Assembly (NCBI GenBank): GCA_964561455.1
Contig: CAZLPS010000001.1
Location: forward strand, 48,977 to 112,976
Direction: 5' to 3'
Length of the DNA: 64,000 nt
Source of the DNA: an uncultured Opitutales bacterium
Lineage (GTDB): Bacteria; Verrucomicrobiota; Verrucomicrobiia; Opitutales; JABDGR01
This document shows, piece after piece, positions 23,229 to 58,182 of the stretch. A program made the translations under genes and the position numbers. The stretch's first letter is position 1; every line of letters begins with the position of its first letter. A model generated the notes under the pieces. That model saw only the letters and a program-made list of their open reading frames with translations. It was not told the DNA's origin and did no database searches.

Positions 23229-23274
23229 TTTTGCGCGTCTTTGCCTGCCGGCATTCTTTCCTAATCCCACCGCC

Positions 23275-31112: not shown

Positions 31113-31131
31113 AGTTAGACCCCTCTGGACT

Positions 31132-41605: not shown

Positions 41606-42469
41606 ATGAGCCAGCCGCCCGCACTCGTTTTGCCCGACACCGGCGAGGTTTGCCTCCTGACGCCGGAGGCCATGGCTGAATGGTGGCGTGCACAAGGCCG
41701 CAAGGTTTGCCAATTTCGCGGCCGCTTATGGGAGGAGGTGCGCCCGGGCGGCTACTTTCAGCCCATTCATCCCCTCGCCCGCTTGCGCAAAGACGAAATT
41801 GCCCGCCCCCGTTGGTGGGCTTGGGGTTTTCGTGCCGCCGTCGCCGATACCGACCGTGATTTCGCCAATGCGACCCTGCCCACCCAGCTGCTGGCCAACT
41901 TGGCGGACTATGACCTCGGTCAATTGCCCCCGAGGCGCCGGACCTATTTGCGCGGCTGCCTCAAGGCGGTGCGCTTGGTGCGCCTTGACCGCACCCTTAT
42001 GGAAGAGCAGGGCTTCGCGGTGGCGTGTTCTTCCATCCGGCGCACCGGCTATCTCAAAGTGCCGTCACCCGCTGAATATCGGCAATCCCTGTCTGCGGAT
42101 TTTTTGCGGCCGGAAGTTGTGCTCCTCGGCGGACTGGTGGACGGCCGTCTGGGCGGCTATATTGTCGCCTATGCCATCGAGGGCACGGCTTATATTGAGC
42201 GCGTGCTGATTGCTTCGGAATTTCTCGATTACAACATTACCACGGGCGTGGTCTACCAATTCGCCCAAATGTGCCGCCGTCATGGCGGTATTCGCGAAAT
42301 GGTTTATGGATTGCACTCGCGGGAAGACGACAAGCTTTGCCAGTTTAAGGAGCACATGCGTTTTTCCGTTGTCCCGGTGCCGTCGCGGATCTACCTTAAT
42401 CCCCTGATGAGCCATTACGTCAAGTGGCGGCAACCCCATGTTCATTACCGGATGACTGGCCTGCCCTGA
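41606..42469 (+). CDS. Putative GNAT/FemAB-like acyltransferase
   Basis: RRRTYLR, LGGYIVAY...AYIE, YG......LCQFKE resemble the FemAB/Acetyltransf_6 fold. Confidence 0.55.
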   Translation: MSQPPALVLPDTGEVCLLTPEAMAEWWRAQGRKVCQFRGRLWEEVRPGGYFQPIHPLARLRKDEIARPRWWAWGFRAAVADTDRDFANATLPTQLLANLADYDLGQLPPRRRTYLRGCLKAVRLVRLDRTLMEEQGFAVACSSIRRTGYLKVPSPAEYRQSLSADFLRPEVVLLGGLVDGRLGGYIVAYAIEGTAYIERVLIASEFLDYNITTGVVYQFAQMCRRHGGIREMVYGLHSREDDKLCQFKEHMRFSVVPVPSRIYLNPLMSHYVKWRQPHVHYRMTGLP

Positions 42470-43185
42470 TCGCCCTCCGCCACTGCTCCGCTGGGTCCAT
42501 AAACTTTCCATTCACAGAGGGTTTGCGTTAGCCAGCTGCGGCGCCGCGGTCGGCCCGCCAGCGGGCGCAAAAACTGCAAATCGTCAAACAAATGTTGGCA
42601 TTTCGAACAATTGTAAAGCATCACATACCATTGGCGCGGATGGGCGGCTTGGCTCCGGCGCAGATTCTGCACGACGGGTGCCATGACCTTTTCGTTGAAG
42701 GGATTATAAAAAAACAGCACGCAGTTGCCGGTGGGTGGCTCAAATTCCATGGCGTCCGCAGCCAATACTTCCATCCGTGCCCCCGGTACGCGGGGTTGGA
42801 ATATTGCAATGTTTCGCCGGGCGATTTCGACCATGTCCGGCGCATAATCCAGCCCGGTAATTCGGCGAAATCCAGCCTGCGCCGCCAGCAGGAGCGTCCG
42901 GCCCTTGCCGCAACCGTAGTCCAGAAAGTGGAGCGAATCCAGTGGCGGCGGAACCTCCCGCAGCATCCGCCGAAATTCGCCCGTCGGCGTGGGCTGATAC
43001 TCAATTCCAAACGGCTTGTTGGCGCTGCTCGTGCGCAGGACGGCGTTGGCCACGAAGTTGCTGGTTTCGGTGCCGTAGCGCCAGTCAAAGGCGGCTTTGT
43101 CCGCCATGCGCAATACGGCGCTCCGGATGCGCATGAGGGTGGCGGAGGGCATGGATGAAAAACCGGTGGAGCCGGGCGTGCTCAT
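42445..43185 (-). CDS. Class I SAM-dependent methyltransferase
   Basis: FLDYGCGKGR, GLDYAP, LAADA, FFYNPF; start uncertain (43191, 43185 or 43152). Confidence 0.8.
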   Translation of the reverse strand: MSTPGSTGFSSMPSATLMRIRSAVLRMADKAAFDWRYGTETSNFVANAVLRTSSANKPFGIEYQPTPTGEFRRMLREVPPPLDSLHFLDYGCGKGRTLLLAAQAGFRRITGLDYAPDMVEIARRNIAIFQPRVPGARMEVLAADAMEFEPPTGNCVLFFYNPFNEKVMAPVVQNLRRSQAAHPRQWYVMLYNCSKCQHLFDDLQFLRPLAGRPRRRSWLTQTLCEWKVYGPSGAVAEGDQGRPVIR

Positions 43186-43219: not shown

Positions 43220-43870
43220 ATGAGCTTATATCGCCATGGCGGCAAGCGAGCATTCGACCTTGTGCTGGTCCTGCTGATGGCGCCGGTTTGGCTGCCATTG
43301 CTGGCGGTCGTGGCGGTATTGGTCCGCGCCAAGCTCGGTTCTCCGGTGCTCTTTCGCCAACCCCGTCCTGGTCGCTATGCCACGACGTTTGCAATTATAA
43401 AATTTCGCTCCATGACGGAGGCCCGCGACACCTTGGGCAACCTTTTGCCGGACCCCGCCCGCCAGACCTCATTTGGCCGCTGGCTGCGGCGCACGTCGCT
43501 GGATGAATTACCCGAATTAATCAACGTGGTCCGCGGGGACATGAGCCTCGTGGGCCCCCGCCCCCTCCTCATTCGCTACTTGCCGCGCTATTCTCCGACC
43601 CAAGCCCGCCGCCACGACGTGCTGCCGGGCATTACCGGTCTGGCCCAAGTCAAAGGCCGCAACAACATCTCTTGGGAGGAAAAATTTCGCCTCGATGTCT
43701 GGTACGCGGAGAATTTGTCCTGGGGGCTTGATATTAAGATTTTGTTGCTGACTGTCGGAAAGGTGCTGGCGCACGAAGGTGTCGTTGAGCCTGCCACTGG
43801 CGTTCACCAGGAATTTCTGGGCAGCCCACCCCCCGTCGGCCCACCTGACCCCCAAAATTTGCCAAAATAG
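43220..43870 (+). CDS. Priming phosphoglycosyltransferase, PglC-like sugar transferase
   Basis: KRAFDL, FRQPRPG, KFRSM, RRTSLDELP, GDMSLVGPRP, PGITGLAQV.GRN. Confidence 0.92.
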   Translation: MSLYRHGGKRAFDLVLVLLMAPVWLPLLAVVAVLVRAKLGSPVLFRQPRPGRYATTFAIIKFRSMTEARDTLGNLLPDPARQTSFGRWLRRTSLDELPELINVVRGDMSLVGPRPLLIRYLPRYSPTQARRHDVLPGITGLAQVKGRNNISWEEKFRLDVWYAENLSWGLDIKILLLTVGKVLAHEGVVEPATGVHQEFLGSPPPVGPPDPQNLPK

Positions 43871-43940
43871 TGGCGAAAGTTCCCCCAAATTGAGCCGATA
43901 CGGGAAATGGCACCGCCACTCTGACCGCAATTACCCCCCG

Positions 43941-45056
43941 ATGTTTTTTGACGGAATCATCAGCGCCGATGATCCCCGGTGGACGGAAGTCCTCGGGCGC
44001 TTTCCCGCGTACGATTTCCACCACCTCCCGGCCTATGTTGCGCTTGAGGCCGAGCGCCGGGGAGCCAAGGCCGGTGCCTATGTCCTGCAATGCGACCAGG
44101 GATCTTTTCTGTTGCCCTTGCTCGAATCGCAAGTGCCGCTGACGTTGCAACCCGAGGGTATTTCCCCGGAAGATGCGCTCGCGCCCTACGGCTATGCGGG
44201 GCCTTTGATCGCCGCCGATGGCGACATGATGCAACGCGAGAAATTTGTCGCGCTGGTGCTGGCCCGGTTGGTGGAACATCTGCGCTGCCGGAATATTTGT
44301 TCCCTCCTGTTGCGCTTTCATCCGTTGTTGCCGATTCCACTCAAGCCTTTTCAAGCCCTCGGGCATCTGGTGTTTCACGGCGAGACGGTGGACGTGGATT
44401 TGCGCCAGACGCCCGCGCAACTCTGGTCCGACACTCGCCGTGATTTCCGCAACCCGATCAATCGCATGGAGCGCCAGGGTTTCCGGTTTGAGCTGGATTT
44501 TGCCGCGCAGCGCTTGGGCGACTTTGTGAAAATCTATCATGAAACCATGCTTCGCGTGCGGGCCGATCCCCAGTATTTCTTCTCCCAGGATTATTTCCGC
44601 GGCTTGAAGACCGCTTTGGGGCCCGGCTTCGTTCTGGCCCACGTCTTCAACCCGGCGGGTGAAATGGTTTCGAGTGGCATCTTCACCGTTTGTTCGGGCA
44701 TCGTGCAATACCACTTGTCGGGCAATTCATTTGGTGGCCAGGGTTCGGATGGTTCAAAATTGCTGCTGCACGGTGTCCGCCAGTGGGCGCGGGAACACGG
44801 CTCTACCCATTTTCATCTGGGTGGTGGAGTCGGGGCCCGCAACGATTCCCTGTTCTTGTTCAAAAGCGGGTTTTCCTCGGGCCGGGCGCAATTTCATACC
44901 TGGCGGCTGATTGTGGACGCCGCCGCCTATCAGCGCCTCTGCCAACGGTGGGAGTTGCTCAACCGCCAGCCCGCCGACGCTCCGGAAGGCTTTTTCCCAG
45001 CTTACCGGAAAATGCTTCCCGCACCGGCGGCGCTGGGCGAGCGCCAATGCGCTTGA
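43941..45056 (+). CDS. GNAT/FemAB-like acyltransferase
   Basis: PYGYAGP, RFHPL, YFFSQDYF, YHLSG, HLGGG, LFLFKSGF. Confidence 0.78.
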   Translation: MFFDGIISADDPRWTEVLGRFPAYDFHHLPAYVALEAERRGAKAGAYVLQCDQGSFLLPLLESQVPLTLQPEGISPEDALAPYGYAGPLIAADGDMMQREKFVALVLARLVEHLRCRNICSLLLRFHPLLPIPLKPFQALGHLVFHGETVDVDLRQTPAQLWSDTRRDFRNPINRMERQGFRFELDFAAQRLGDFVKIYHETMLRVRADPQYFFSQDYFRGLKTALGPGFVLAHVFNPAGEMVSSGIFTVCSGIVQYHLSGNSFGGQGSDGSKLLLHGVRQWAREHGSTHFHLGGGVGARNDSLFLFKSGFSSGRAQFHTWRLIVDAAAYQRLCQRWELLNRQPADAPEGFFPAYRKMLPAPAALGERQCA

Positions 45057-45123
45057 GACCAACTCTTTAGTTTGTTTATTCCTGACCACCCAGCAGGAAA
45101 ACACATTAAGATTCCATAAACGC

Positions 45124-45152
45124 TTGATTTCGAGTAACCGATTTGAGATTAT
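45124..45152 (+). promoter_or_regulatory. Possible internal promoter in an AT-rich gap before the acylation cassette
   Basis: TTGATT-17nt-GATTAT with TG at the extended -10 position. Confidence 0.35.
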
Positions 45153-45194
45153 GTTGGCCTTGTCGCGGCGTTTCCGCGGAAGAGCCGTTTCCCA

Positions 45195-45953
45195 ATGCTC
45201 GAGCCTTTATCCTCAAGTGATTCCCCGCGCCCACTAGTCATTGTAGGCGCTGGGGGCCATGGCCTCGAGGTCCTGTGGGTCGCCGCCCGGATGTCGCTCG
45301 ATCCCGTGTTCGGCAGTTGGAACGTCTTGGGCTTTGTCGACGACCGTCAGAGCTTGCGGGGTCGTTTGGTCGAGGGTCTGCCTGTACTTGGTTCGGTGCT
45401 TGAGTTCTTGGAATCGCACCGGGGCCGGCCAATTTATTTCCACTGCGCTGTCGGCAGCAATTTGCAGCGGCAACGCTTGGGGGATTTGTTTGAACGGGAG
45501 GGCTTTCAACCGGCCACCATCATGGACCCGTTGACCGTCGTCTCCCCGCGGGCTAAAATTGGGCCCGGGTGCTATGTCGCCCCGCGCTGTTATATTGGGC
45601 CCTATGCCGAATTGGGAAAGTATGTTCTCGTCAATGTCGGGTCCAGCGTTGGGCATCATGCCATCATGGGCGATTACTCCCAGGCTTGCCCCGGTGTGCG
45701 CGTCAACGGCCATTCCATTGTGGATAAACTGGTTTTTTTGGGCTCCAATTCCGTTGTCCATCCGGGTAAACGCGTCGGCGAGAATTCCACCGTGGCCGCG
45801 GGCTCCTTTGTGGTGCGGGACGTTCCTCCCAATACGCTCGTGGTGGGTGTGCCCGCCGTCGCGGTCCACCACACGCCGGTGTTTGAGGGCGAAGGCACCA
45901 ACCAGGAGGCCCTTCCCCGGCCGCCCACCCAGGCTATTCCACCGGTTGTATGA
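45195..45953 (+). CDS. NeuD/PglD-family sugar acyltransferase (left-handed beta-helix)
   Basis: IVGAGGHG, GFVDD, AVGSN...R, hexapeptide repeats, VGHH, VGVPA. Confidence 0.88.
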   Translation: MLEPLSSSDSPRPLVIVGAGGHGLEVLWVAARMSLDPVFGSWNVLGFVDDRQSLRGRLVEGLPVLGSVLEFLESHRGRPIYFHCAVGSNLQRQRLGDLFEREGFQPATIMDPLTVVSPRAKIGPGCYVAPRCYIGPYAELGKYVLVNVGSSVGHHAIMGDYSQACPGVRVNGHSIVDKLVFLGSNSVVHPGKRVGENSTVAAGSFVVRDVPPNTLVVGVPAVAVHHTPVFEGEGTNQEALPRPPTQAIPPVV

Positions 45954-46171
45954 TTTCCGACGAGTCAATTCGGCAGGCTGTGGCGCGGGAACTTAAGGTT
46001 CCGCCCAGTTTGTTGCTGCCCGAAACCGTCTTGCACTCCCTGCCGGGCTTTGATTCGGTGCAATTATTGATGCTCATGGTTGCCTTGGAGGAAATTGGCG
46101 TCAAAATCCCCACCACCGAGGCCGCCAATTTGCGCACGTTCGGGGAACTTCTCGTCTTCGAGCGCAAGTAG
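45950..46171 (+). CDS. Acyl carrier protein
   Basis: 73 aa; GFDSVQLL phosphopantetheine motif. Confidence 0.78.
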   Translation: MISDESIRQAVARELKVPPSLLLPETVLHSLPGFDSVQLLMLMVALEEIGVKIPTTEAANLRTFGELLVFERK

Positions 46172-46198
46172 ATTCTTTCCCGGCCCCGATTCCGGTCC

Positions 46199-47281
46199 AT
46201 GCTGCACGCCGCCCTCACTGCGATTCATCACGTCGTGCCCGCTCGCCGTTTGACGGCGGCCGAGTTGGAGGCGCGATTCGGGGCGAAGAGTGTTCAGTCC
46301 ATTACCTCGTTGTCTGGCATTCGTGAGCGCCGTATCGTTGAGCCAGGGATGACCGCTTCGGATTTGGCCTTTGCCGCGGCCGACCGGTTGCTCGAAGCCC
46401 GGGGCATCCCGCGGCCGTCGCTGGACGTGCTCGTGGTCACCACCCAAACAGGTGATTATCAGATTCCCGGCACGGCCTACGTGTTGCATGAACGCCTCGG
46501 ATTGTCCCCACATTGTGCCGCCTTTGACCTCGCCCAGGGTTGTTCGGCTTTTCCCTACTCGCTGGCTGTCGCCCAGGGATTGTTCGCGGCTGGTCTGGCC
46601 CGGCGCGCGCTCGTCCTCAACGCGGATGCAGTTTCCTCCATTCTTCATCCGCAGGACCGTACCCTGGTCACCCTGCACGGCGATGGCGCCACCGCAACCT
46701 TGTTGGAGACCGCCACCGCCAATGAAGGTTTGCTCGGTTTTCATTTGGGTACCGACAGTTCCGGCTGGCGGTACCTGTGCATGCCGGCTTCCGGTGCGCG
46801 CCAGCCGCGCGATGAATCCACCCGCCGGGAAATTACTGACGAATTCGGCAATGTTCGGACGGCGGAGCATTTCCAGATGAACGGGCAGGCCGTGTTTCAT
46901 TTTGCGATCCACAAGATTCCCGAGGTGGTCGGCGAAGCACTGGGCAAATTTGGCGTGTCGCTGGCGGATTTGGATCTGGTCATTCTCCACCAGGCCAACC
47001 GGTTTATGATTCAGCAGATATATAAAAAACTCGGTGTGCCGGCTGAAAAACAGTTCTTTTACCTCGAGGACGTCGGCAACCTCAGTGGCGCGGCCACTCC
47101 GGCGGCATTGTCGGAAGCCGTGCGCCAGGGCCGTGTCCGCCCCGGCGCCTTGATTTTACTGGTCAGTTTTGGCGTGGGCCTCTCCTGGGGCATTGCCCTT
47201 GTGCGCGTCGGCCCACATGGCTTGGTGCCCATTTCGGCCTCCACCGAATTGACGCTGGTGAATCCAAATTCCCAGTCATGA
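46199..47281 (+). CDS. 3-oxoacyl-ACP synthase III (FabH-like)
   Basis: SGIRERR, AQGCSAF (Cys), HQAN (His), GNLSGA (Asn), SFGVGLSWG. Confidence 0.9.
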   Translation: MLHAALTAIHHVVPARRLTAAELEARFGAKSVQSITSLSGIRERRIVEPGMTASDLAFAAADRLLEARGIPRPSLDVLVVTTQTGDYQIPGTAYVLHERLGLSPHCAAFDLAQGCSAFPYSLAVAQGLFAAGLARRALVLNADAVSSILHPQDRTLVTLHGDGATATLLETATANEGLLGFHLGTDSSGWRYLCMPASGARQPRDESTRREITDEFGNVRTAEHFQMNGQAVFHFAIHKIPEVVGEALGKFGVSLADLDLVILHQANRFMIQQIYKKLGVPAEKQFFYLEDVGNLSGAATPAALSEAVRQGRVRPGALILLVSFGVGLSWGIALVRVGPHGLVPISASTELTLVNPNSQS

Positions 47282-47508
47282 CCCGCGCCCAAAAGTTGGA
47301 CCGTCTGCAGGAAATTTTTCGCGACGTGCTCGACCAGCCCGCCTTGCATATTACCGAAAGTTTTTCGCCCGCGGACTGCCCGGAATGGGACTCCGTGGCG
47401 ACGGTGCAGATCGTCCTCGCGGCGGAGGCGGAGTTCGCCATGCGGGTGCCCACCGCCACAGTCGCCCACCTGCATTGTGTCCGGGAATTGCTCGATTTGG
47501 TGCCATGA
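47278..47508 (+). CDS. Acyl carrier protein (FkbH-associated type)
   Basis: 76 aa; EWDSVATVQIVLAAEAEF. Confidence 0.82.
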   Translation: MTRAQKLDRLQEIFRDVLDQPALHITESFSPADCPEWDSVATVQIVLAAEAEFAMRVPTATVAHLHCVRELLDLVP

Positions 47509-49340
47509 GTACTTCTGCCGGCCAACTTTTTTTTGCGGCTGCTTTGGCCCGCGCCCGCGCCCAACGCTCCGCTGGCGACCTGGCCGGCTCATTGCGCGAG
47601 TTGCAGTTTGGGCTCGACGCCCCGGCCGAATTCCCCTCTGCAACGTCAGCCGCGAAGTTTTTGGAAAAATCCGCTGCCGGTGGCATTCCTCCGGGGCTGC
47701 CCGTGCGTCGCGTGGCTTTGCTCGGAGCCGAAACCCTGGCCTTTATTCAACCTCTTGTTCGCGCCCTGGCCTTTCGCGACGGCTGGTGGCCGGTGTTTTA
47801 TGACGCCCCTTTCGGCGCCTGGCAGCAGGAAATTCTCGCACCGCATTCAGCGCTTCGCAAGTTCCAGCCAGCAGTCACGTTAATCTTGCGCGGTTGGCCC
47901 TCTCTTGGGCCGGGTGAAGTGGACGCCGGTCAATTGGCCGATGCAGAACTGGCGGTGGCCCGTCGGGCGGCAGAAGGCCTCGGTTTGGTTCTCTGGCCGG
48001 GATACGACTGCCCTTCGTTGGACCCTGCATTGTGCGCCGCCTTGGTGGAGGTCAACCGGCGGCTGCAGACCAGCTTGCCGCTGGAAATGCTCTGGGTGAA
48101 TCTGGCGGAATTGCAGGTTGCTTTTGGCGATGGTTGGGAGGATCGGCACTTGTGGGACGCTGCCCGCCAGCATCCCTCCGCCGCCGCCTGCATCGCGGTG
48201 GTGGAATTGTGGCTCTCCCTTTTGCGCGCCCGCTGGGGGCAGGTGCGCAAGGTTCTCGTCACGGACCTCGATAATGTTTTATGGGGCGGCATCGCGGGCG
48301 AGGACGGCATCGAGGAACTGCGCTTGGGTCCGGGTTCTCCCACCGGTGAAGCGCATGCGCAATTTCAACAGTATTTGCTCGAACTTAAGCACCAGGGCGT
48401 GTTGCTGGCGGTTTGCTCAAAGAATAATGACGCCGACGCCCGCGAAGTCTTTGCCCGCCGGACGATGCCGCTCAAACTCGGGGACTTTTCCGGTTGGATG
48501 GTCAATTGGCGCGATAAAGCGGATAATTTGCGCACCCTCGCCGCAAAAATGCGTCTCGGCCTCGACAGTTTTGTGTTTGTGGATGACCAGCCGGCCGAAC
48601 GCGCCCGCATCCGCCAGGCGCTGCCGGAAGTCGCCGTGCCCGAGATTCCGCCCGATCCCGCCGGCTATGTCGCTGTTTTACAGGCGCGCAGGTTTTTTCC
48701 GGCTGGCGCCGTATCCGCCGAAGACCGCGGCCGCACCGCTGCTTATCTGGCCGACGAAAAGCGGAACGAATCCTGCGCCAGCGCCGCCACCCTGGACGAT
48801 TTTTTGCGTGGATTGGAAATGGTGTGTGACCACGGCCCCATTTCGGATCTTGAGCTCGACCGGGCCGCACAATTGCTCGCCCGCACCAATCAGTGGAATC
48901 TGACCACCCGGCGCCATTCTCGCGCGGAAATGACCCGATTAATTTGCCAGCCGGGCGTGCTCACGCGCTGGTTTCGTTTGCGCGACCGGTTTGGGGACAA
49001 TGGCATTGTCGGACTGTGGATTTTAATGCCTGGCGCGGCTGGCGAATGGGAAATTGACAGTTGGGTCATCAGTTGCCGTGTCATCGGCCGTGGCTTGGAG
49101 GACTTAATGTTCAACGAACTGGTGGACCTTGCCCGCTCCGCCGGCGCCACCCGCTTGCGCGGTGTTTATATTCCCACGGCTAAGAACAAACTTGTTGCCG
49201 GTCTGCTTCCCGGGTTTGGTTTTTCGGCGGTGGGCGGTGAAATGGAATCTGGCAGCCGGGCTTATGCCATCGAGCTCGATCAAGCATCTCGGCGTACCCA
49301 CGTTATTCGTTTTCCAGCAGGGAATGGCGCGGTTCTTTAG
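47505..49340 (+). CDS. FkbH-like HAD-IIIC glyceryl-ACP loading enzyme
   Basis: DLDNVLWGG, CSKNN, NWRDK, FVDDQPAER, RTNQWNLTTRR, DRFGDNG, SCRVIGRG. Confidence 0.9.
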   Translation: MSTSAGQLFFAAALARARAQRSAGDLAGSLRELQFGLDAPAEFPSATSAAKFLEKSAAGGIPPGLPVRRVALLGAETLAFIQPLVRALAFRDGWWPVFYDAPFGAWQQEILAPHSALRKFQPAVTLILRGWPSLGPGEVDAGQLADAELAVARRAAEGLGLVLWPGYDCPSLDPALCAALVEVNRRLQTSLPLEMLWVNLAELQVAFGDGWEDRHLWDAARQHPSAAACIAVVELWLSLLRARWGQVRKVLVTDLDNVLWGGIAGEDGIEELRLGPGSPTGEAHAQFQQYLLELKHQGVLLAVCSKNNDADAREVFARRTMPLKLGDFSGWMVNWRDKADNLRTLAAKMRLGLDSFVFVDDQPAERARIRQALPEVAVPEIPPDPAGYVAVLQARRFFPAGAVSAEDRGRTAAYLADEKRNESCASAATLDDFLRGLEMVCDHGPISDLELDRAAQLLARTNQWNLTTRRHSRAEMTRLICQPGVLTRWFRLRDRFGDNGIVGLWILMPGAAGEWEIDSWVISCRVIGRGLEDLMFNELVDLARSAGATRLRGVYIPTAKNKLVAGLLPGFGFSAVGGEMESGSRAYAIELDQASRRTHVIRFPAGNGAVL

Positions 49341-49413
49341 ATCATTCAGATACCGCAGGCTCCCGGCCACCAAATTTGCGAACACCGGCCTGGGCGCCCT
49401 TTGGACCCGGTTT

Positions 49414-50172
49414 TTATTGGATGGCCGCCAAAGCTCTTGCTTCCACCGGGGGCAGCTTGGCGTATAGGTCGAACGTGCGGCTGAATTGGTTCATGAATTT
49501 AATGAACCCGGGTTCGGACCACAATTGTTCAAAAGACTCGACGGATGAAAGGCGGATTACGAGTTGTTCCTTCCGCTGGTCCAGACCAAAGCGCTTGAAA
49601 TCCTCCACCAGTACTGGCAGCCGCTCAATGCGCCCGGCGAGTCCGTTTTCCCATCCAACCAGATCGTAGGACATCGGCACGCCCCCCACCAGATGCCAGA
49701 AGATTACGTGCACCGACTGGCCGTCCTTCTTGTACGTGCCAGTTTCCATCGGCTTGAGTGTGCCGCCGGCGAGGTTCTTTTCGACGTCCTGGCTCCGCTC
49801 GAATTGTTCCCAGCCATTGTGCACCCAGCAGGTGTCTGGTGAGTGCGAGCCAACTTTAGCCGGGCTGAATCTCCCCGGCAGCCAGTGCGCGACGTATACC
49901 TGCACCTGGGTTTGCCCGTTCGAGTAAATTCGGCAGACCGCATCGTCATAATGCAGGACTGATTCAACTTGGGCCTGCTCCTCCGGCGTGGAGGCGATGT
50001 CCTGATCCGTGGTGGCCCAGCCATCTGGCGGCAACGGCAGCAGCTGCGCCAGCGGCTGGTCAATCGCGGCCTTCGGCGCAGGCTTAAGCGCAATGTACAC
50101 GTTCAACCCCAGCAGTGCGACGACAATCACGCAGCCAAGACCCAACAAGGCACGCAGCCAGCGGGGGGACAT
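49414..50172 (-). CDS. EpsI-family (exosortase-associated) periplasmic protein
   Basis: N-terminal TM anchor; GW...D, YDD...R.Y, YVAHW, HSPDTCW..NGW, VIFWH. Confidence 0.75.
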   Translation of the reverse strand: MSPRWLRALLGLGCVIVVALLGLNVYIALKPAPKAAIDQPLAQLLPLPPDGWATTDQDIASTPEEQAQVESVLHYDDAVCRIYSNGQTQVQVYVAHWLPGRFSPAKVGSHSPDTCWVHNGWEQFERSQDVEKNLAGGTLKPMETGTYKKDGQSVHVIFWHLVGGVPMSYDLVGWENGLAGRIERLPVLVEDFKRFGLDQRKEQLVIRLSSVESFEQLWSEPGFIKFMNQFSRTFDLYAKLPPVEARALAAIQ

Positions 50173-50398
50173 GGCATCATCCTAATCCAAGACCTTGAAA
50201 ATTGGAAGGTTGAAGTTGTCACCGGCGCGTCCATCACCGGAGCCACGAGTGGGGCGACCGCCGTTGCCGATTGGTTATTTTGCGATAAACTCCCAATGCC
50301 CATCCACCAAGATGGCACGTTCGCCGATTGCTGTTCAGAGAGTTTCCGGTTGCTTGCCAACTTGGAAAATTTAAGCTTGGACGTTCGTCCTTCCACCC

Positions 50399-51529
50399 AT
50401 GCCACCACGCATTTACCTTTCACCGCCCGACATCGGCTCCGACGAGCAGGCCCTGGTGGCCGAGGCCTTTGCCTCGAATTGGATCGCTCCGCTCGGCCCG
50501 CAGGTGGATGCTTTTGAAAGGGAGTTTGCCCATTGTGTCGGCGCCGAGCATGCCGTCGCGCTCAGTTCCGGCACGGCCGCCCTCCATTTGGCGCTGCGCC
50601 TGCTTGGCATCGGCCCAGGTGATGAAGTCTTGTGCTCGACGCTGACCTTTGTCGCGTCAGCCAATCCGATTGTCTATGAACGCGGCACGCCCGTGTTCCT
50701 CGATTGCGAGCGCGAATCCTGGAACCTCGACCCAAACATTTTGGCGGACGCGTTGCGCGCCCGTTCCGGGAGGTTGCCCAAAGCCCTCGTGCTGGCGCAC
50801 CTTTACGGCCAAAGTGCCAATCTCGACCCCATTGTAAATTTATGTGCTGAGCACGGCGTGGCATTGGTTGAAGACGCCGCCGAGGCCCTCGGTGCGACCT
50901 ACCATGGCCGGCCGGTTGGCACGCGGGGTTTTGCCGGAGTATTTTCTTTCAACGGTAACAAAATCATCACCACCTCTGGCGGCGGCATGCTGGTGACGGG
51001 CGACGGCGATTTGGCCCGGCGAGTGCGCTTCCTTGCCACTCAGGCCCGCGACTCCGCGCCGCATTACGAGCACTCGCAGCTCGGTTTCAATTACCGTTTG
51101 AGCAACGTGCTCGCGGCCATTGGCCGCGGCCAGTTGCGCCACCTCGCGGAAAAAATTGACCGCCGCCGCGCCAATTTTGATTTCTACCTTAAAACGCTGG
51201 GCGATTTGCCCGGCGTCCAATTCATGCCCGAGGCCACTTGGGGCCGGGCCAATCGCTGGCTGACCTGCCTGACCATTGACCCCGTCGTTGCCGGTACCGA
51301 CCGCGAATCTGTCCGGCTGGCGTTGGAAAGGGAGAATATCGAAGCCCGCCCAGTCTGGAAACCCCTGCATTTGCAGCCCCTTTATTCCCGGTCGCCGCGG
51401 TTTGGCGGCGCGGTGGCGGAGGATTTGTTTGCTAACGGTCTCTGCCTGCCGTCTGGTTCAAATTTGTCGGAGGGGGAACGCGCCCGGGTGGCGTCCGTGG
51501 TGCGGACCCGCTTTCCCGAAGCTCATTAA
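50399..51529 (+). CDS. DegT/DnrJ/EryC1/StrS aminotransferase (PglE-like)
   Basis: SNWIAPLGP, SSGTAALHL, EDAAEALG, SFNGNKIITTSGGG, GFNYRLSN. Confidence 0.92.
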   Translation: MPPRIYLSPPDIGSDEQALVAEAFASNWIAPLGPQVDAFEREFAHCVGAEHAVALSSGTAALHLALRLLGIGPGDEVLCSTLTFVASANPIVYERGTPVFLDCERESWNLDPNILADALRARSGRLPKALVLAHLYGQSANLDPIVNLCAEHGVALVEDAAEALGATYHGRPVGTRGFAGVFSFNGNKIITTSGGGMLVTGDGDLARRVRFLATQARDSAPHYEHSQLGFNYRLSNVLAAIGRGQLRHLAEKIDRRRANFDFYLKTLGDLPGVQFMPEATWGRANRWLTCLTIDPVVAGTDRESVRLALERENIEARPVWKPLHLQPLYSRSPRFGGAVAEDLFANGLCLPSGSNLSEGERARVASVVRTRFPEAH

Positions 51530-51555
51530 AAAGTTGGAAAAACAGGAGCGATTTC

Positions 51556-51584
51556 TTGCCAGTTGCCGCCCGAACGCGTAAGCT
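51556..51584 (+). promoter_or_regulatory. Putative sigma70 promoter of the dehydratase gene
   Basis: TTGCCA-17nt-TAAGCT upstream of ATG 51604. Confidence 0.45.
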
Positions 51585-51603
51585 GGTCTTTTTTCGGCTC
51601 TTC

Positions 51604-53496
51604 ATGGCTAATCGAACCACTTTTAGTATTTGGGCGCGGCATCTCGCCGTGCTGATTTGTTACAGCGGCCTGCTGACGTTTAGCTTTTATCTCGCTTACG
51701 AGCTCCGGTTTAATTTCGCCGTGGATGAAGACGCGCATTTTTTGCGCCGCCACCAGTTCGTTTGGGTCATCCCGGGCGAGTTGCTGTTGCTCTATGCCTT
51801 TGCGCAATTTCGCGGATTTTTGTCGTATTTTCGCATGCCGGATTTGGCCCGCCTGGTCGCGGCGCTGGGCTGTGGCATGGGCTTGTTATTACTAATCTAT
51901 CTCGGGTTGAATATTTTGTTGGAGCGCACCATTGCTCCGCCATTGGCCGTCATCGTTGGTAATTTCATCATTGCCACCCTGGTCTTGTCCGGATTCCGCC
52001 TCTGGCTGCGTTCCCACCGTGAGGGCAAACCCTCCGGCCCCAAACCGAAAAATGGCGCGAAACAGCGCCGCGTTGCCATTGTTGGCGCTGGCGAAGTCGG
52101 CTCGGCCGTCGTCGCTGACTTGCTGGCCAAACGCGGCCTCGGCCTCAAACCTGTGATCTTTTTTGACGACAATTCCGCCAAGCACGGCCATGACATTCAC
52201 GGCGTCCCCGTCGTCGGCTCGCCCGATCAAATGTCCGTCGCCCGCGAGGCTTATGATTTCGACCAAATCATTATCGCGCTGCCGGCTGGCGCGCACCGTC
52301 GGATGCTCGAGGTTGTCAGCCAGGCCAAGGCGCTGGGCTTGGAGACTGAAGTCATGCCCTCCATGTGGGAACTGGCCTCTGGCCGGGTGCAGGCGTCACA
52401 AATTCGCCCCGTGGAACTGGAGGACTTGTTGGGGCGCGATCCGGTCAGCCTCGATTCCGATTTGATTACGGAAATGTTGCACGGACGGGTGGTCATGGTG
52501 ACGGGCGCCGGCGGCAGCATCGGGGCGGAATTATGCCGTCAAATCGCCAATCGCGCGCCCAAGCAATTGATCATCGTTGACCAATCGGAGGTGCAGTTGT
52601 TTCAAATTGAGCAGGAACTTATCGGCCTGGGCCACGGCCCGCTGCTGGTATCGGTGGTCGCCTCCATTCTCGATGAAGCGCGTATGGCCTGGCTCCTGCA
52701 CTCCCACCAGCCGAATCTGCTTTTTCACGCCGCCGCCCACAAGCATGTGCCGATGATGGAGCACCAGCCGGTCGAGGCGCTAAAGAACAACACTGTCGGC
52801 ACCCATCAACTTGCCAAACTGGCGTCCGCGCACAAGGTCGGCAAATTCGTGCTCATTTCCACCGACAAGGCCGTCAACCCCACCAGCGTGATGGGCTGCT
52901 CCAAGCGTCTCGCCGAAATCGCCGTCCAAGCCCATCAGCAATCGCCCGGCAACGTGACTAAATTCTGTGCCGTCCGCTTTGGCAACGTGCTTGGCTCTTC
53001 CGGTAGCGTCATCCCCACCTTCAAGCGCCAAATCGCCGAGGGCGGCCCGGTCACAGTCACCCATCCGGACGTCTTGCGCTATTTCATGACCATTCCAGAA
53101 TCGGTGGGCTTGGTGCTGCAAGCCGCCTCGCAGGCCGGCGGCGGCGAGATCTTTGTCCTGGATATGGGCCTGCCCATTAAAATCATTGATGTCGCCCGCC
53201 AGTTGATCGAACTGAGCGGCTTTCGCCCCGACGTGGACATCGAAATCAAATTTGTCGGCCTGCGCCCCGGCGAGAAACTCTTCGAGGAAGTCCAGCACAA
53301 GGGCGAGCAGTTCCAGGACACCTCGCATAAGCGCATCTATCGCTTCGTCTGCCATCCGGCCACCCCGTCTGAAGTTGAAGAATGGATGCGCCAGTTGTCC
53401 GCCCAACTCCATCCTGGCGAACGCGACGAAATCAAAAGATTTCTCACCAAGTTGGTGCCGGAATACACACCCTATTTGACCAGGGATGGCGGCTAA
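51604..53496 (+). CDS. Membrane-anchored UDP-GlcNAc 4,6-dehydratase (PglF/WbpM/CapD family)
   Basis: 4 TM + IVGAGEVG, EDLLGRDP, VTGAGGSIG, HAAAHKHVP, STDKAVNP, RFGNVLGSSGSV, RYFMTIPE, RPGEKL. Confidence 0.94.
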   Translation: MANRTTFSIWARHLAVLICYSGLLTFSFYLAYELRFNFAVDEDAHFLRRHQFVWVIPGELLLLYAFAQFRGFLSYFRMPDLARLVAALGCGMGLLLLIYLGLNILLERTIAPPLAVIVGNFIIATLVLSGFRLWLRSHREGKPSGPKPKNGAKQRRVAIVGAGEVGSAVVADLLAKRGLGLKPVIFFDDNSAKHGHDIHGVPVVGSPDQMSVAREAYDFDQIIIALPAGAHRRMLEVVSQAKALGLETEVMPSMWELASGRVQASQIRPVELEDLLGRDPVSLDSDLITEMLHGRVVMVTGAGGSIGAELCRQIANRAPKQLIIVDQSEVQLFQIEQELIGLGHGPLLVSVVASILDEARMAWLLHSHQPNLLFHAAAHKHVPMMEHQPVEALKNNTVGTHQLAKLASAHKVGKFVLISTDKAVNPTSVMGCSKRLAEIAVQAHQQSPGNVTKFCAVRFGNVLGSSGSVIPTFKRQIAEGGPVTVTHPDVLRYFMTIPESVGLVLQAASQAGGGEIFVLDMGLPIKIIDVARQLIELSGFRPDVDIEIKFVGLRPGEKLFEEVQHKGEQFQDTSHKRIYRFVCHPATPSEVEEWMRQLSAQLHPGERDEIKRFLTKLVPEYTPYLTRDGG

Positions 53497-53744: not shown

Positions 53745-55049
53745 CTATGGATTTGCCATCGCCACCGGCTTGGGTGTTAGTACGAATCCAACATCGTTGC
53801 CGTTATTGTCTTTGGCCGTGCCCACAATTTGGCCGCGTTCGTTAATGCCGTTGGCCCGGGTCAGGGCGCTTAATCGGGCATTCGTGAGCATGGCTTTGCC
53901 GACCAGGTCATTGAGGTCCTTCATTTTACCGTCAGCATATAGGAACGCATGGAATGTTCCGTCGGCAATGCTTGCCATTCCCACGATCTGCCCCGCCGCA
54001 TTGATGCCATTAGCTTGGCTGACTGTTCCCCCATTGAGGGTGCCCAAATCCTGCATCTTCCCGGTTTGATAAAGGAAAGCATGGGGATTACCCACGCTCC
54101 CCGTCATCCCGGCAGTGCCCCCGGTCTCCGCCCATCCCACCACGAGACCGTGGTTGTTGAGGCCGAGGGCCACACTGTTGTCGCCGCCCAGCGCGCCGAG
54201 ACTTTGCACTTCTTTGCCATCGAAGAAATAGGCGTGCGCCACATGCGATGCCTGCGGCGCGTTGGCATCCAGGGCCGCCGCGCCAACCACCTGGCCCAAG
54301 TCATTCAGCGCACACGCAACGCTACCCCAGGAATCGGACCGAACCTTGCCATAACATATATTTCTGCCACCGTGCCCGACAAAGACCATGGCGGAGCCCG
54401 CCACATGTTTGGACAGGTCCGGAATTCCCGCCCACGGCTGGCTGACATCAAACCCAACGCTTGCAATTGTTCCAACCGTCTCGGTAAACGTGCCAGAACT
54501 GTTGATGCCGGTCGCCGCGCCCAAGTTCCATTGTGGCCCACCGGAAGCGCCAAAGCCGACCATCGCATTGTCCTTCAGTTCCCCGCCGTTATAAATAAAT
54601 CCATGGTAAATTGTCCCGATCGGGGGCGCTCCCCGGGGTGAGGTGAGTGACGGAATGGACGACGACATATTCGCCCTCAGGCCGGACCAGCCCACGACCT
54701 GCCCACTGGAATTAATTGCTTCAGCGGAGCTCGTGTCGCCAGATAATGCGCCGAGATCCGTCATCTTTTCGCCGCTGTACATAAACGCGTGAATGTGCCC
54801 GTTTGCCACCTCTGCCCAACCAACGACCTGGCCAGCGTCGTTAATGGCTCTGGCCTCGCTGGCCTTTCCGTCCAGCGAGAGAATGGAGAGGGTGTTGTAT
54901 GCCGCTACCGAATTGGATGATGCGTTCGTGGCCGCGGGAGCTGATGCCGCCGGTCCGATGGTCCCAGCCAAACCCGTTTCAACCGGCAACGTTTCGGCGC
55001 CGCCGACCGCCATGTTGATGACCATTACTGAATAGATACAGGATTTCAT
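53745..55049 (-). CDS. Secreted HAF-repeat (beta-propeller-like) protein
   Basis: Repeated HAF(L/M)Y..GKM.DLG.L.G..S.A..IN..GQ(V/I)VG units. Confidence 0.85.
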   Translation of the reverse strand: MKSCIYSVMVINMAVGGAETLPVETGLAGTIGPAASAPAATNASSNSVAAYNTLSILSLDGKASEARAINDAGQVVGWAEVANGHIHAFMYSGEKMTDLGALSGDTSSAEAINSSGQVVGWSGLRANMSSSIPSLTSPRGAPPIGTIYHGFIYNGGELKDNAMVGFGASGGPQWNLGAATGINSSGTFTETVGTIASVGFDVSQPWAGIPDLSKHVAGSAMVFVGHGGRNICYGKVRSDSWGSVACALNDLGQVVGAAALDANAPQASHVAHAYFFDGKEVQSLGALGGDNSVALGLNNHGLVVGWAETGGTAGMTGSVGNPHAFLYQTGKMQDLGTLNGGTVSQANGINAAGQIVGMASIADGTFHAFLYADGKMKDLNDLVGKAMLTNARLSALTRANGINERGQIVGTAKDNNGNDVGFVLTPKPVAMANP

Positions 55050-55992: not shown

Positions 55993-55999
55993 TTTGCGA

Positions 56000-58047: not shown

Positions 58048-58182
58048 CTTGGTTAAGGGCTGCCCTAAGGTAATCACCCCAATCCATTTACATTCCCTTC
58101 CCTTGTCGCTTCCGCTTGAACACCCGTTTGATTTTCAATATTGAATCTAATGGATTTCGGGCCTCGCCATTCTACCTGCCGC

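Follow-up and report, generated by a model that had tools for sequence, protein, structure and literature searches.

The genes analysed here close a polysaccharide locus of the Wzx/Wzy type at its 3′ end. They come from an uncultured soil bacterium of the Opitutales (Verrucomicrobiota) and lie within a 64-kb stretch of DNA that is referred to below as the window (Table 1). The original prediction had placed four Pgl-like genes, starting at 43220, 45195, 50399 and 51604, around an acyl cassette, and their coordinates were found to be right, with all four on the plus strand. The genes it had named stood, but two genes of the interval, the FemX-like gene and the EpsI/DUF3485-like gene on the minus strand, had been left out. 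The polysaccharide locus ends with the dehydratase gene, and the genes downstream of it were unrelated.

Table 1. Genes at the 3′ end of the polysaccharide locus, with positions in the window
Product	Position	Strand	Length (aa)	Family match
PglC-type small monotopic phosphoglycosyl transferase (PGT)	43220..43870	+	216	Pfam Bac_transf, 199.5 bits
FemX-like tandem-GNAT transferase	43941..45056	+	371	Pfam Acetyltransf_6, 23.7 bits (cutoff 22)
PglD/NeuD/VioB-family left-handed beta-helix N-acyltransferase	45195..45953	+	252	TIGR03570, PglD_N
ACP1	45950..46171	+	73	PP-binding, 32.8 bits
KASIII, FabH-type ketosynthase	46199..47281	+	360	NF006829, 274.6 bits (cutoff 249)
ACP2	47278..47508	+	76	PP-binding, 22.1 bits; NF009104, 36.2 bits
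FkbH-like HAD-IIIC enzyme	47505..49340	+	611	TIGR01686
EpsI/DUF3485-family protein	49414..50172	-	252	Pfam PF11984, 44.6 bits
PglE-type PLP aminotransferase	50399..51529	+	376	DegT family, 332.7 bits
PglF-type membrane-anchored UDP-GlcNAc 4,6-dehydratase	51604..53496	+	630	Polysacc_synt_2, 378.6 bits; CoA_binding_3

The stop codon of the PglD-like gene overlaps the start codon of the ACP1 gene in a 4-base ATGA, which bore out the earlier claim that the acyltransferase is translationally coupled to the first ACP. The same 4-base overlap was observed at the KASIII/ACP2 and ACP2/FkbH junctions, and the gap between the ACP1 and KASIII genes is 27 nt. The order PGT–FemAB-like–PglD-like–ACP1–KASIII–ACP2–FkbH–(EpsI, minus strand)–aminotransferase–dehydratase is conserved in relatives. 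Because it recurs as a whole at 60–90% protein identity, the arrangement is not due to chance.

The best solved relative of the PglC-like transferase was C. concisus PglC (8G1N), which it matched over its full length (204 bits, 49.7% identity). It contains the Asp95-Glu96 dyad, PRP and GNLLP (corresponding to the GLLLP motif); its aromatic box is complete (5/5: Y120, Y124, W152, F156 and F199), and R119/E198 stand in place of the E117/K196 salt bridge, with the charges swapped. A sequence fingerprint of UDP-diNAcBac-type transferases has been defined (PMC10186338), and it was found complete in the PglC-like transferase. No second Bac_transf gene was found in the 64-kb window. These two observations supported the earlier claim that the Pgl-like genes make the sugar of the initiating transferase, which is predicted from its sequence to place the completed UDP-sugar on undecaprenyl phosphate. 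Because the fingerprint came from enzymes of 4-N-acetyl sugars, it does not follow that the PGT accommodates a bulkier 4-N-acyl group.

The open reading frame of the dehydratase opens with a TTG at 51556; the public gene call has it begin at the ATG at 51604. Its best PDB match was C. jejuni PglF/WlaL (5BJU, 292 bits, compared with 145 bits for CapD and 127 bits for PseB), and a GxGGxxG motif, Thr420-Asp421-Lys422 and hydrophobic N-terminal segments were observed. The aminotransferase, the sole DegT gene product in the window, was closest to C. jejuni PglE (1O61, 305 bits; 4ZTC, 303 bits) and has Lys188 within an NGNK motif. Together, the two enzymes would convert UDP-GlcNAc to UDP-2-acetamido-4-amino-2,4,6-trideoxyglucose. 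It is very improbable that they and the acyltransferase instead feed a nonulosonic acid of the legionaminic or pseudaminic type, with the acyl group there and not on the reducing-end sugar. Such a pathway would agree with the best NCBIfam model of the aminotransferase, the LegC family (370.9 bits), with a NeuB-like gene at 22945–24765 in the locus, and with the C. jejuni cassette discussed below, which decorates pseudaminic acid. Nevertheless, the LegC score is under the cutoff of 420, the NeuB-like protein, a fusion with a cupin, reaches 152 bits where the cutoff is 400, and neither a CMP-sugar synthetase nor a hydrolysing 2-epimerase was found in any ORF scanned. The PglF-type rather than PseB-type dehydratase, and the position of the genes beside a PGT bearing the diNAcBac fingerprint, also argue against it.

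The acyltransferase scored 175.5 bits with TIGR03570 (NeuD/PglB/VioB; cutoff 160.8) and contains a PglD_N domain. Its PDB relatives were VioB (7TXP), WeeI (4M9C), the acetyltransferase domain of Neisseria PglB (4M98), PerB and PglD (3BSS). With PglF, PglE and PglC of C. jejuni or C. concisus as the closest solved structures of the other three proteins, the genes flanking the acyl cassette are of the Pgl type, as proposed. The PglD-like protein has diverged, being closer to VioB (92 bits) than to PglD itself (58 bits), and its catalytic His is kept (H154, invariant in alignments A2 and A3). By the DSV motif, the phosphopantetheine serine was placed at Ser36 in ACP1 and Ser39 in ACP2; the two ACP types are distinct, with cross-scores of only ~17 bits. 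ACP1-type orthologues come after PglD-like genes in the relatives' loci L085–L106. An ACP gene was located directly 3′ of the PglD-like gene in 15 of 16 close relatives (≥60% identity) and beside it in five of six mid-distance relatives (44–48%), but in only one of 46 distant relatives (≤41%), which sit in plain PGT-PglD-AT-DH (PglC-D-E-F) sets; that is, in 20/22 above 44% identity versus 1/46 below. From this gene order we infer that an ACP rather than CoA is the acyl donor, and the PglD-like enzyme is predicted to acylate the 4-amino group from acyl-ACP1. The ACP route to N-acylation in the original prediction was thus well founded, but the plain glyceroyl group named with it was not established.

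The FemX-like gene, located between the PglC-like and PglD-like genes, is present in 12/12 close relatives, and remoter homologues adjoin PglC/D/E-type genes in L165, L166, L168 and L169. The homologue profile of the protein matched W. viridescens FemX (E = 4.9e-10). Foldseek with its AF2 model (pLDDT 90.3) returned FemX first (TM 0.68/0.75), followed by Sbb17/Sba18, FemA and MprF; Sbb17/Sba18 are aa-tRNA-dependent peptide synthases. The FemX-like transferase is probably aminoacyl-tRNA-dependent and may attach an amino acid to the sugar that the PglD-like enzyme would acylate; in the pathway proposed below, this decoration would probably be carried by that sugar or its acyl arm. The enzyme requires a free amine or hydroxyl, which bears on the order of steps and was counted against that pathway.

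The presence of this tandem GNAT beside the cassette in all close relatives would also be expected if the PglD-like enzyme were an ordinary acetyl-CoA-dependent acetyltransferase giving plain UDP-diNAcBac, while the ACP/KASIII/FkbH cassette served, by way of the FemX-like GNAT or of some unseen transferase, to decorate something else such as another polymer residue or a lipid. The complete di-N-acetyl-sugar fingerprint of the PGT, weak FemAB-like matches directly after FkbH in L057 and L067, and the occurrence of most FkbH/ACP pairs without any PglD-like gene are consistent with this explanation. It is nevertheless considered unlikely in view of the overlap of the PglD-like and ACP1 genes and the steep drop in ACP adjacency at lower identity. 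Moreover, the PglD-ACP pair persists without the FemX-like gene and FkbH (L098, L100, L106), FemX-like homologues lie beside PglC/D/E genes without the ACP cassette (L166), and known FemX-fold enzymes use aminoacyl-tRNA, not acyl-ACP.

KASIII matched B. pseudomallei KASIII best (3GWA, 215 bits; E. coli FabH, 176 bits), and its Cys-His-Asn triad is intact (Cys115, His264, Asn294). The FkbH-like protein scored 278.7 bits with the TIGR01686 FkbH domain (cutoff 146.65) and 56 bits with HAD-IIIC, and contains DLDNV (Asp254/Asp256), SKN and an invariant S523-C524-R525. FkbH/OzmB-type enzymes form glyceryl-ACP in polyketide and tetronate pathways, and in the latter a FabH-like enzyme acts on glyceryl-ACP. 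The window protein shares with them the HAD aspartates, the conserved Cys and an adjoining dedicated ACP, but it has an extra ~240-residue N-terminal domain like that of B. fragilis BF1531 (3SLR), which its N-terminal and HAD part matched with E = 1e-47. Unlike those systems, the window contains no FkbG/I/K-type methoxymalonyl-ACP enzymes and no PKS, and the acceptor of the proposed product is a sugar amine. In 52/80 genome loci, FkbH-like genes are found together with an ACP2-type gene. The order KASIII-(VOC)-ACP-FkbH recurs in several phyla (L007, L011, L017, L020, L026, L050), but 73 of the 80 loci have no KASIII near the FkbH-like gene, which counts against the pathway proposed here.

As a whole, the locus is best explained by an ACP-fed 4-N-acyl bacillosamine-type starter sugar for the polysaccharide, which we consider reasonably probable. 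In this pathway, the PglD-family transferase would draw its acyl group from the dedicated ACP1 instead of acetyl-CoA. Three tightly coupled genes would supply this group: the FkbH-like enzyme is predicted to charge ACP2 with a glyceryl unit from glycolytic phosphoglycerate, and KASIII to link this unit to ACP1. The likeliest KASIII step would be decarboxylative condensation with malonyl-ACP1 to a 4,5-dihydroxy-3-oxopentanoyl (C5) group; alternatively, the glyceryl group might be handed on unchanged. The PglC-like transferase would then attach the acylated sugar-phosphate to undecaprenyl phosphate, thereby making it the first sugar, at the reducing end. What we infer from these assignments is that glyceryl is the starter, what KASIII does and in which order the steps follow: a glycerate-derived acyl group is plausible, and KASIII together with the second ACP suggests a C5 β-ketoacyl group primed with glycerate. 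A malonyl-CoA:ACP transacylase, a phosphopantetheinyl transferase and a ketoreductase were all absent from the 64-kb window, so the C5 route needs housekeeping enzymes or leaves a reactive β-keto group. The usual acetylation step is apparently replaced by an ACP-fed enzyme, a scheme already proposed in two other bacteria.

Several modules are exchanged among relatives. An SDR follows ACP1 in L095, L099 and L101, and a methylmalonyl-CoA-epimerase-like VOC precedes ACP2 in L092 and L095, all close relatives. In L100 and L106, PglD-ACP-SDR and KASIII are kept and FkbH is replaced by an ACP, AMP-ligase, Fe-ADH and LuxE/LuxC, while L114, L115 and L118 show PGT-KASIII-ACP-SDR-PglD-AT without a starter module. 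KASIII is present in every complete locus having the SDR. Because of the intact KASIII, the second ACP and these SDR, epimerase-like and AMP-ligase swaps, a glycerate-primed, KASIII-extended acyl group fits at least as well as plain glyceroyl.

In C. jejuni NCTC 11168, the locus for flagellin glycosylation includes cj1302 (fkbH-domain), fabH2 (cj1303), acpP3 (cj1304) and the "epimerase" cj1301, and dimethylglyceroyl-Pse is absent from strains that lack cj1302 or cj1301 (PMC7099621). By annotation, these are the same kinds of parts as in the window, cj1301 matching the VOC of its relatives. There too, an amide bond joins a glycerate-derived acyl group to an amino sugar, but the acceptor is a nonulosonic acid on flagellin, whereas a lipid-linked starter sugar is proposed here; methyltransferases lie inside that cassette, which is the putative source of the acyl group. 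Its neighbours are presumably cj1298 (NeuD-like), cj1299 (acpP2) and cj1300 (methyltransferase). Although this cassette has FabH2 and at least two ACPs, its known product is the C3 2,3-di-O-methylglyceroyl amide, which argues against chain extension by KASIII. It is accordingly possible, but in our view doubtful, that FkbH forms glyceryl-ACP and that the PglD-like enzyme passes the glyceroyl group on without extension. The product would then be a 2-acetamido-4-glyceramido-2,4,6-trideoxyhexose (GATDH-like), with KASIII only shuttling glyceryl from ACP2 to ACP1 or having another purpose. The FkbH-domain assignment with its intact residues also speaks for this, and KASIII-like ACP-to-ACP acyl shuttles are known, such as ChlB3 of chlorothricin biosynthesis. 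In contrast, the window KASIII has the full decarboxylating triad and is about as near to true FabH enzymes as those are to each other, the SDR lies between ACP1 and KASIII in relatives, as expected for β-keto reduction, and two distinct, separately conserved ACP lineages would be unnecessary for direct transfer.

In F. psychrophilum (pglE, pglF, wfpC-G), the PglD homologue WfpG is the predicted transferase of a 3,5-dihydroxyhexanoyl group, with the ACP WfpD as donor and UDP-Qui2NAc4NH2 as acceptor; KAS enzymes WfpC/E and ketoreductase WfpF build this group in a type-II-FAS-like manner, and the structure of the acylated sugar of the O-polysaccharide was chemically proven (PMC6519341). By this published description, the window likewise combines a PglD homologue with a locus-specific ACP, and the simple wfp layout resembles L114, L115 and L118. 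However, F. psychrophilum has two ketosynthases, a ketoreductase, one ACP and no FkbH, whereas the window combines a single KASIII and two ACPs with a glycerate loader and lacks a reductase.

Compared with PglF-PglE-PglD-PglC of C. jejuni and C. concisus, which give Und-PP-diNAcBac, the window acyltransferase is a member of the same family and keeps the catalytic His, but its gene is coupled to an ACP and followed by KASIII, a second ACP and FkbH. A further difference is the FemX-like gene that separates the PglC-like gene from the PglD-like one, and the product is part of a Wzx/Wzy polysaccharide rather than an N-glycan. In V. cholerae O1, rfbKLMNO is associated with the tetronate on perosamine, with proposed N-acylation of a 4-amino-4,6-dideoxy sugar, and comprises a dedicated ACP, an AMP-ligase-like protein, an Fe-alcohol dehydrogenase, a LuxE/LuxC-like protein and a hexapeptide acyltransferase. 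The same enzyme types stand beside PglD-ACP in L100 and L106; the window has FkbH and KASIII in place of those starter enzymes.

The Neisseria PglB2 product GATDH is reportedly the 4-N-glyceroyl variant of the same trideoxyhexose, also at the reducing end. PglB2 has an ATP-grasp domain and works without any ACP, FkbH or KASIII; should the product of the window be a glyceramido sugar, its route would be unrelated to that of PglB2. The original description as convergent with PglB2 was fair, but it passed over the closer precedents wfpC-G (PMC6519341) and cj1301-cj1304 (PMC7099621).

The EpsI-like gene keeps its position in L003, L085–L095, L099, L100 and L106. NCBIfam EpsI models gave ~30 bits with its product, far under their cutoffs, and the protein probably lies outside the sugar pathway.

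The window has a G+C content of ~60%; among its named relatives, Opitutales MAGs (Verrucomicrobiota) are closest. One large polysaccharide locus spans ~7-53.5 kb. Besides the gene set in its last 10 kb, it encodes nucleotide-sugar dehydrogenases/dehydratases, several GT2/GT4 glycosyltransferases, two Wzy-like proteins, a MurJ/Wzx-like flippase, a heparinase II/III-like protein and a divergent NeuB-like/cupin fusion. The genes of the original prediction, in which a PglF/E/D/C-like set surrounds an acyl cassette, were found where it had placed them. ATGA stop/start overlaps were observed at three junctions (PglD-like acyltransferase/ACP1, KASIII/ACP2 and ACP2/FkbH-like), the first of which confirmed the predicted translational coupling of the acyltransferase with the first ACP. 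The FemX-like gene between the PglC-like and PglD-like genes had been left out of that prediction. The position of the EpsI/DUF3485-like gene, between the FkbH-like and aminotransferase genes, is kept in every relative, even in the loci L100 and L106 with a different acyl cassette; among the ORFs scanned, none for an exosortase was seen.

Genes of the polysaccharide locus and its downstream flank discussed here (positions in the window)
Feature	Position	Strand	Length (aa)
NeuB-like protein fused to a cupin domain	22945-24765	+	606
Long ORF without family match	31084-32277	-	
GT4 glycosyltransferase	31132-32283	+	
Heparinase II/III-like protein	38382-40322	+	
ORF without Pfam match	41606-42469	+	287
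Class-I SAM methyltransferase	42445-43185	-	
Bac_transf phosphoglycosyl transferase (PGT, PglC-like)	43220-43870	+	216
FemAB-like (FemX-like tandem-GNAT) protein	43941-45056	+	371
PglD/NeuD/VioB-family acyltransferase (PglD-like)	45195-45953	+	
ACP1	45950-46171	+	
KASIII (FabH-type)	46199-47281	+	
ACP2	47278-47508	+	
FkbH-like HAD-IIIC protein	47505-49340	+	
EpsI/DUF3485-like gene	49414-50172	-	
DegT aminotransferase	50399-51529	+	
Membrane-anchored Polysacc_synt_2 dehydratase	51604-53496	+	
DUF3466 gene	53745-55049	-	
Sensor histidine kinase, NMT1/THI5-like periplasmic domain	55994-57913	+	
Sensor histidine kinase, NMT1/THI5-like periplasmic domain	58141-60048	+	

It was found that the closest solved structures of the PGT, the aminotransferase and the dehydratase were PglC, PglE and PglF, and that the acyltransferase scored above the NeuD/PglB/VioB cutoff, in agreement with the Pgl-like assignment originally made for these flanking genes. 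Inspection of the sequences revealed the expected catalytic residues in all enzymes of the set. Compared with all solved structures, the PGT (PF02397, Bac_transf, 199.5 bits) was closest to Campylobacter concisus PglC (204 bits, full length, 49.7% identity), and its Asp-Glu dyad D95-E96 and P113-R-P115 match D93-E94 and P111-R-P113 of that enzyme. Small PGTs of the UDP-diNAcBac type are marked by a five-residue aromatic box (Y118, Y122, W150, F154, F197), a GLLLP loop motif and a C-terminal extension of ~14 residues, with a score of at least 200 against the authors' cluster HMM and UMP release with UDP-diNAcBac as further criteria (Anderson et al. 2023, PMC10186338). In the window PGT the aromatic box is complete (Y120, Y124, W152, F156, F199, all identical to PglC), the loop motif is G73-N-L-L-P77 (GNLLP), and the alignment reaches the end of PglC and is followed by 15 extra residues, so that the C-terminal extension is present. 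The salt bridge holding the C-terminus, E117-K196, is charge-swapped to R119-E198.

The dehydratase (PF02719, Polysacc_synt_2, 378.6 bits) gave its best PDB match with C. jejuni PglF (5BJU, 292 bits, versus 145 for CapD and 127 for PseB). It contains GAGGSIG at residue 301, T420-D421-K422, and hydrophobic segments within the N-terminal 130 residues; the roles of the Thr-Asp-Lys residues in PglF-type dehydratases were reportedly described by Riegert et al. in 2017. The aminotransferase (PF01041, 332.7 bits), in which the PLP lysine K188 is present, was closer to C. jejuni PglE (1O61, 305 bits) than to PseC (2FN6, 105 bits), WbpE or ArnB and scored below the cutoff of the LegC family TIGR04181 (370.9 bits, curated cutoff 420). 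The PglD-like protein exceeded the cutoff of TIGR03570 (NeuD/PglB/VioB, 175.5 bits versus 160.8) and matched PF17836 (PglD_N, 43.2 bits) and Hexapep. Its catalytic His, H154, is the same in all 16 relatives and corresponds in the alignment to that of VioB, PerB and PglD. Every solved relative (VioB, WeeI, the acetyltransferase domain of Neisseria PglB, PerB and PglD) is an N-acetyltransferase of 4-amino-4,6-dideoxy sugars. The PGT and the aminotransferase are the sole Bac_transf and DegT genes in the 64-kb window. Together with the PglC/E/F-like matches and the diNAcBac fingerprint, this suggests that the gene set very likely makes a 2-acetamido-4-(acyl)amino-2,4,6-trideoxyhexose that starts the repeat unit. 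A nonulosonic acid as the destination of the acylated sugar route was rejected as highly improbable, because the NeuB-like/cupin protein scored far under the cutoffs of the NeuB and PseI models (152 and 119 bits, cutoffs 400 and 340) and no CMP-sugar synthetase turned up among the ORFs scanned. The aminotransferase score below the LegC cutoff and the clearly PglF-type dehydratase also speak against it.

To examine gene context, 80 metagenome loci with PglD-like relatives were retrieved by a scan seeded with a narrow alignment of such relatives and annotated using the window proteins as queries; the adjacency denominators are restricted to contigs that extend far enough beyond the PglD-like gene on the side in question. 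An ACP gene directly followed the PglD-like gene in 15/16 loci at identities of at least 60% and in 5/6 loci at 44-48%, versus 1/46 at 41% or less. For the same three classes, an FkbH gene was nearby in 8/8, 0/2 and 0/19 loci, and a FemAB-like gene in 12/12, 0/3 and 0/25. Most loci of the lowest class were plain PGT-PglD-aminotransferase(-dehydratase) sets, namely ordinary diNAcBac-type operons. By its ACP adjacency, the window PglD-like protein belongs to a PglD branch marked by a dedicated, co-translated ACP, and this gene context argues for acyl-ACP over acetyl-CoA as its donor. That plain diNAcBac is made, with the ACP/KASIII/FkbH cassette serving another acceptor, is unlikely in view of the PglD-like/ACP1 overlap and the adjacency statistics. 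We favour, with moderate confidence, a PglD-like enzyme that would be fed by acyl-ACP1 and whose product would be loaded by the PglC-like transferase as the reducing-end sugar. A C-terminal ACP-docking extension on the PglD-like protein was also considered and rejected, as the 30-residue Pro-rich tail varies even among close relatives.

The FkbH-like protein has a complete FkbH domain (TIGR01686, 278.7 bits, cutoff 146.65), in which the HAD aspartates D254xD256 and S523-C524-R525 are shared without change by 15 relatives. It carries a BF1531-like N-terminal domain, and the ACP2 reading frame overlaps its start. FkbH/OzmB is known to load a glyceryl unit onto ACP; by analogy, ACP2 should receive such a unit. 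Loaders of the FkbH type are defined by a cognate ACP, 1,3-bisphosphoglycerate as substrate and glyceryl-S-ACP as product. In the open literature searched, neither characterised members of the polysaccharide-locus FkbH branch with the BF1531-like domain nor a glycan-synthesis function for this branch was found. KASIII scored like true FabH (NF006829, 274.6 bits, cutoff 249; 3GWA, 215 bits), and its triad C115-H264-N294 is intact.

Two modules can be distinguished in the acyl cassette. One, the PglD-ACP1 pair, is constant, and an SDR, where present, lies after ACP1 (L007, L095, L099, L101, L100 and L106); KASIII is present in every complete locus with an SDR. A KASIII-(epimerase-like VOC)-ACP2-FkbH unit was found by itself in Planctomycetota, Acidobacteriota, Brocadiia and a Syntrophobacteraceae MAG. 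In L100 and L106, an ACP, an AMP-ligase, an Fe-alcohol dehydrogenase and LuxE/LuxC stand in place of FkbH, with PglD-ACP-SDR and KASIII retained. The gene order in these two loci (L106 9749-17375 and L100 4492-12178, 44-48% identity) is PglD-like-ACP-SDR-ACP-AMP-ligase-Fe-alcohol dehydrogenase-LuxE/LuxC fusion-KASIII, an enzyme set reminiscent of the V. cholerae O1 tetronate genes rfbKLMN. A PGT-KASIII-ACP-SDR-PglD-aminotransferase layout was observed in L114, L115 and L118. No ketoreductase, epimerase-like VOC, second PGT or second aminotransferase was found elsewhere in the 64-kb window.

The simplest scheme that uses every part would start with the starter unit on ACP2, which KASIII would condense with malonyl-ACP1, followed by optional ketoreduction and transfer by the PglD-like enzyme. 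Because the window is without a reductase or VOC, its predicted product would be a 4,5-dihydroxy-3-oxopentanoyl group (+130 Da), unless housekeeping FabG reduces it. As one part of the favoured reading, such a KASIII-extended form is tentatively proposed as the acyl group. The plain glyceroyl group of the original prediction is possible within the same reading and is retained as a strong sub-alternative, because C. jejuni NCTC 11168 with like genes makes a C3 2,3-di-O-methylglyceroyl amide on pseudaminic acid. The flagellin locus of that strain contains the fkbH-domain gene cj1302, fabH2 (cj1303), acpP3 (cj1304) and an "epimerase" (cj1301), and the dimethylglyceroyl product is missing from strains without cj1302 or cj1301 (PMC7099621). 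Against plain glyceroyl stand the intact KASIII triad, the true-FabH-like score and the two-module cassette, which imply that it may not be the end of the route. The predicted glyceryl-ACP route is plausible in view of the complete FkbH domain with ACP2, but KASIII and the modules suggest that its glyceroyl product may be extended.

A related set is known from F. psychrophilum, in which WfpG, a PglD homologue, is predicted to transfer 3,5-dihydroxyhexanoyl from the ACP WfpD to UDP-Qui2NAc4NH2; two ketosynthases and a ketoreductase assemble this group, and the sugar is chemically proven (PMC6519341). A set of that type comprises a dedicated ACP, one or more ketosynthases, a ketoreductase and a PglD homologue beside pglE/pglF. 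The window contains ACP, KASIII, PglD-like, PglE-like and PglF-like genes, and no ketoreductase was found in it, although its close relatives L095, L099 and L101 carry one; the simple F. psychrophilum-like layout is that of L114, L115 and L118. ACP-dependent N-acylation of a 4-amino-4,6-dideoxy sugar has reportedly been proposed for V. cholerae O1 rfbKLMNO as well. Such N-acylation by hexapeptide transferases is an existing concept, proposed and biochemically unproven, and FkbH/FabH/ACP sets in glycan loci are already known from the C. jejuni annotation. New here are the joining of the acyl cassette to an unequivocal PglF/E/C set for a lipid-linked starter sugar, the view of the cassette as modules with interchangeable starter units, and the associated FemX-like enzyme.

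The FemX-like protein matched Pfam Acetyltransf_6 just over the cutoff (23.7 bits, cutoff 22) and failed the PEP-CTERM-associated FemAB family TIGR03019 (24.5 bits, curated cutoff 260). A profile of its homologues matched FemX of Weissella viridescens (E=4.9e-10). The AlphaFold (AF2) model (pLDDT 90.3) superposed best on FemX in Foldseek (TM 0.68/0.75), followed by peptide synthases that depend on aminoacyl-tRNA and whose structures were determined with an amino-sugar substrate, and after these by FemA and MprF; the top 21 structural matches were all aminoacyl-tRNA-dependent transferases. The gene probably encodes an enzyme of this kind; FemABX transferases are defined by an aminoacyl-tRNA donor and an amine acceptor on a UDP-linked or lipid-linked substrate. 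It was kept in 12/12 close relatives that could be checked, and homologues at ~40% identity adjoin PglC/D/E-type genes in 4/5 contexts sampled (L165, L166, L168 and L169; not L167). Fused proteins were observed in three of these loci: weak PglD_N with FemAB-like GNAT (L165 3271-4698), PglD-like with DegT aminotransferase (L169 4082-6022), and GT4, Bac_transf and DegT in a single 1022-aa protein (L168 2440-5508).

FemX of W. viridescens acts on a UDP-linked substrate. Decoration of the starter sugar with an amino acid by the FemX-like enzyme would be an attractive possibility. Because a single free sugar amine is produced by the locus, the amino acid might be put on N-4 and then capped by the ACP-borne acyl group; alternatively, it might be attached through an ester bond to the diol of this acyl group, by the type of linkage known from aminoacyl-phosphatidylglycerol. 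In L098, L100 and L106, PglD-ACP pairs occur without a FemX-like gene, which indicates that this gene is an add-on and not a requirement. A purely speculative role for the SAM methyltransferase would be O-methylation of the acyl arm, as in C. jejuni. The methyltransferase gene and the 287-aa ORF lie between a GT4 gene and the PGT; both are missing from the same spot in the syntenic relative L003 and are variably present in L086, L088 and L097.

FkbH-like genes with the BF1531-type N-terminal domain (genome loci L005-L084) are very widespread. Relatives were found in at least 592 matching stretches of GTDB species-representative genomes from many phyla, with Acidobacteriota, Alphaproteobacteria, Gluconobacter, Stutzerimonas, Methylorubrum and Mycobacterium among the groups represented. 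In genome loci these genes are usually accompanied by an adjacent or fused ACP alone, and several of the loci examined contain glycan-locus genes.

Bacterial surface glycans commonly carry unusual N-acyl groups on 2,4-diamino-2,4,6-trideoxyhexoses and related sugars, and these groups shape antigenicity, phage recognition and immune recognition. To our knowledge, few of the enzymes responsible for their synthesis and attachment have been identified. More speculatively, the gene set may be one example of a modular "mini-assembly line" that provides amino sugars with N-acyl caps. Its constant core of PglD-like transferase, ACP1, KASIII and in some cases a ketoreductase would be fed by swappable starter modules: FkbH and ACP2 for glycerate, AMP-ligase, ACP, Fe-alcohol dehydrogenase and LuxE/C for another acid, or none for acetyl-CoA. 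Here it would yield an undescribed C5 acyl sugar, 4-N-(4,5-dihydroxy-3-oxopentanoyl) bacillosamine. An amino acid might join through the FemX-like aminoacyl-tRNA-dependent enzyme acting on the nucleotide sugar, either at N-4 under the acyl cap or as a diol ester. The cassette, whose five closely coupled genes are flanked by clear orthologues of PglC, PglE and PglF, offers a compact and clean test system for a very widespread FkbH-like glycan-locus family. It could show whether PglD-family enzymes use acyl-ACP donors, how KASIII handles glyceryl-ACP and whether FemX-like enzymes aminoacylate nucleotide sugars, and the answers would also account for the genes cj1301-cj1304 behind the dimethylglyceroyl flagellin glycan of C. 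jejuni.

Several further features of the window were observed. The heparinase II/III-like gene lies inside the biosynthetic locus directly after a UDP-sugar dehydrogenase gene, and the pair is kept in L003. The long ORF without family match is a shadow ORF, the GT4 glycosyltransferase gene opposite it being the real gene. The two sensor histidine kinases are adjacent paralogues located ~2.5 kb past the end of the polysaccharide locus, from which they are separated by the DUF3466 gene and small ORFs.
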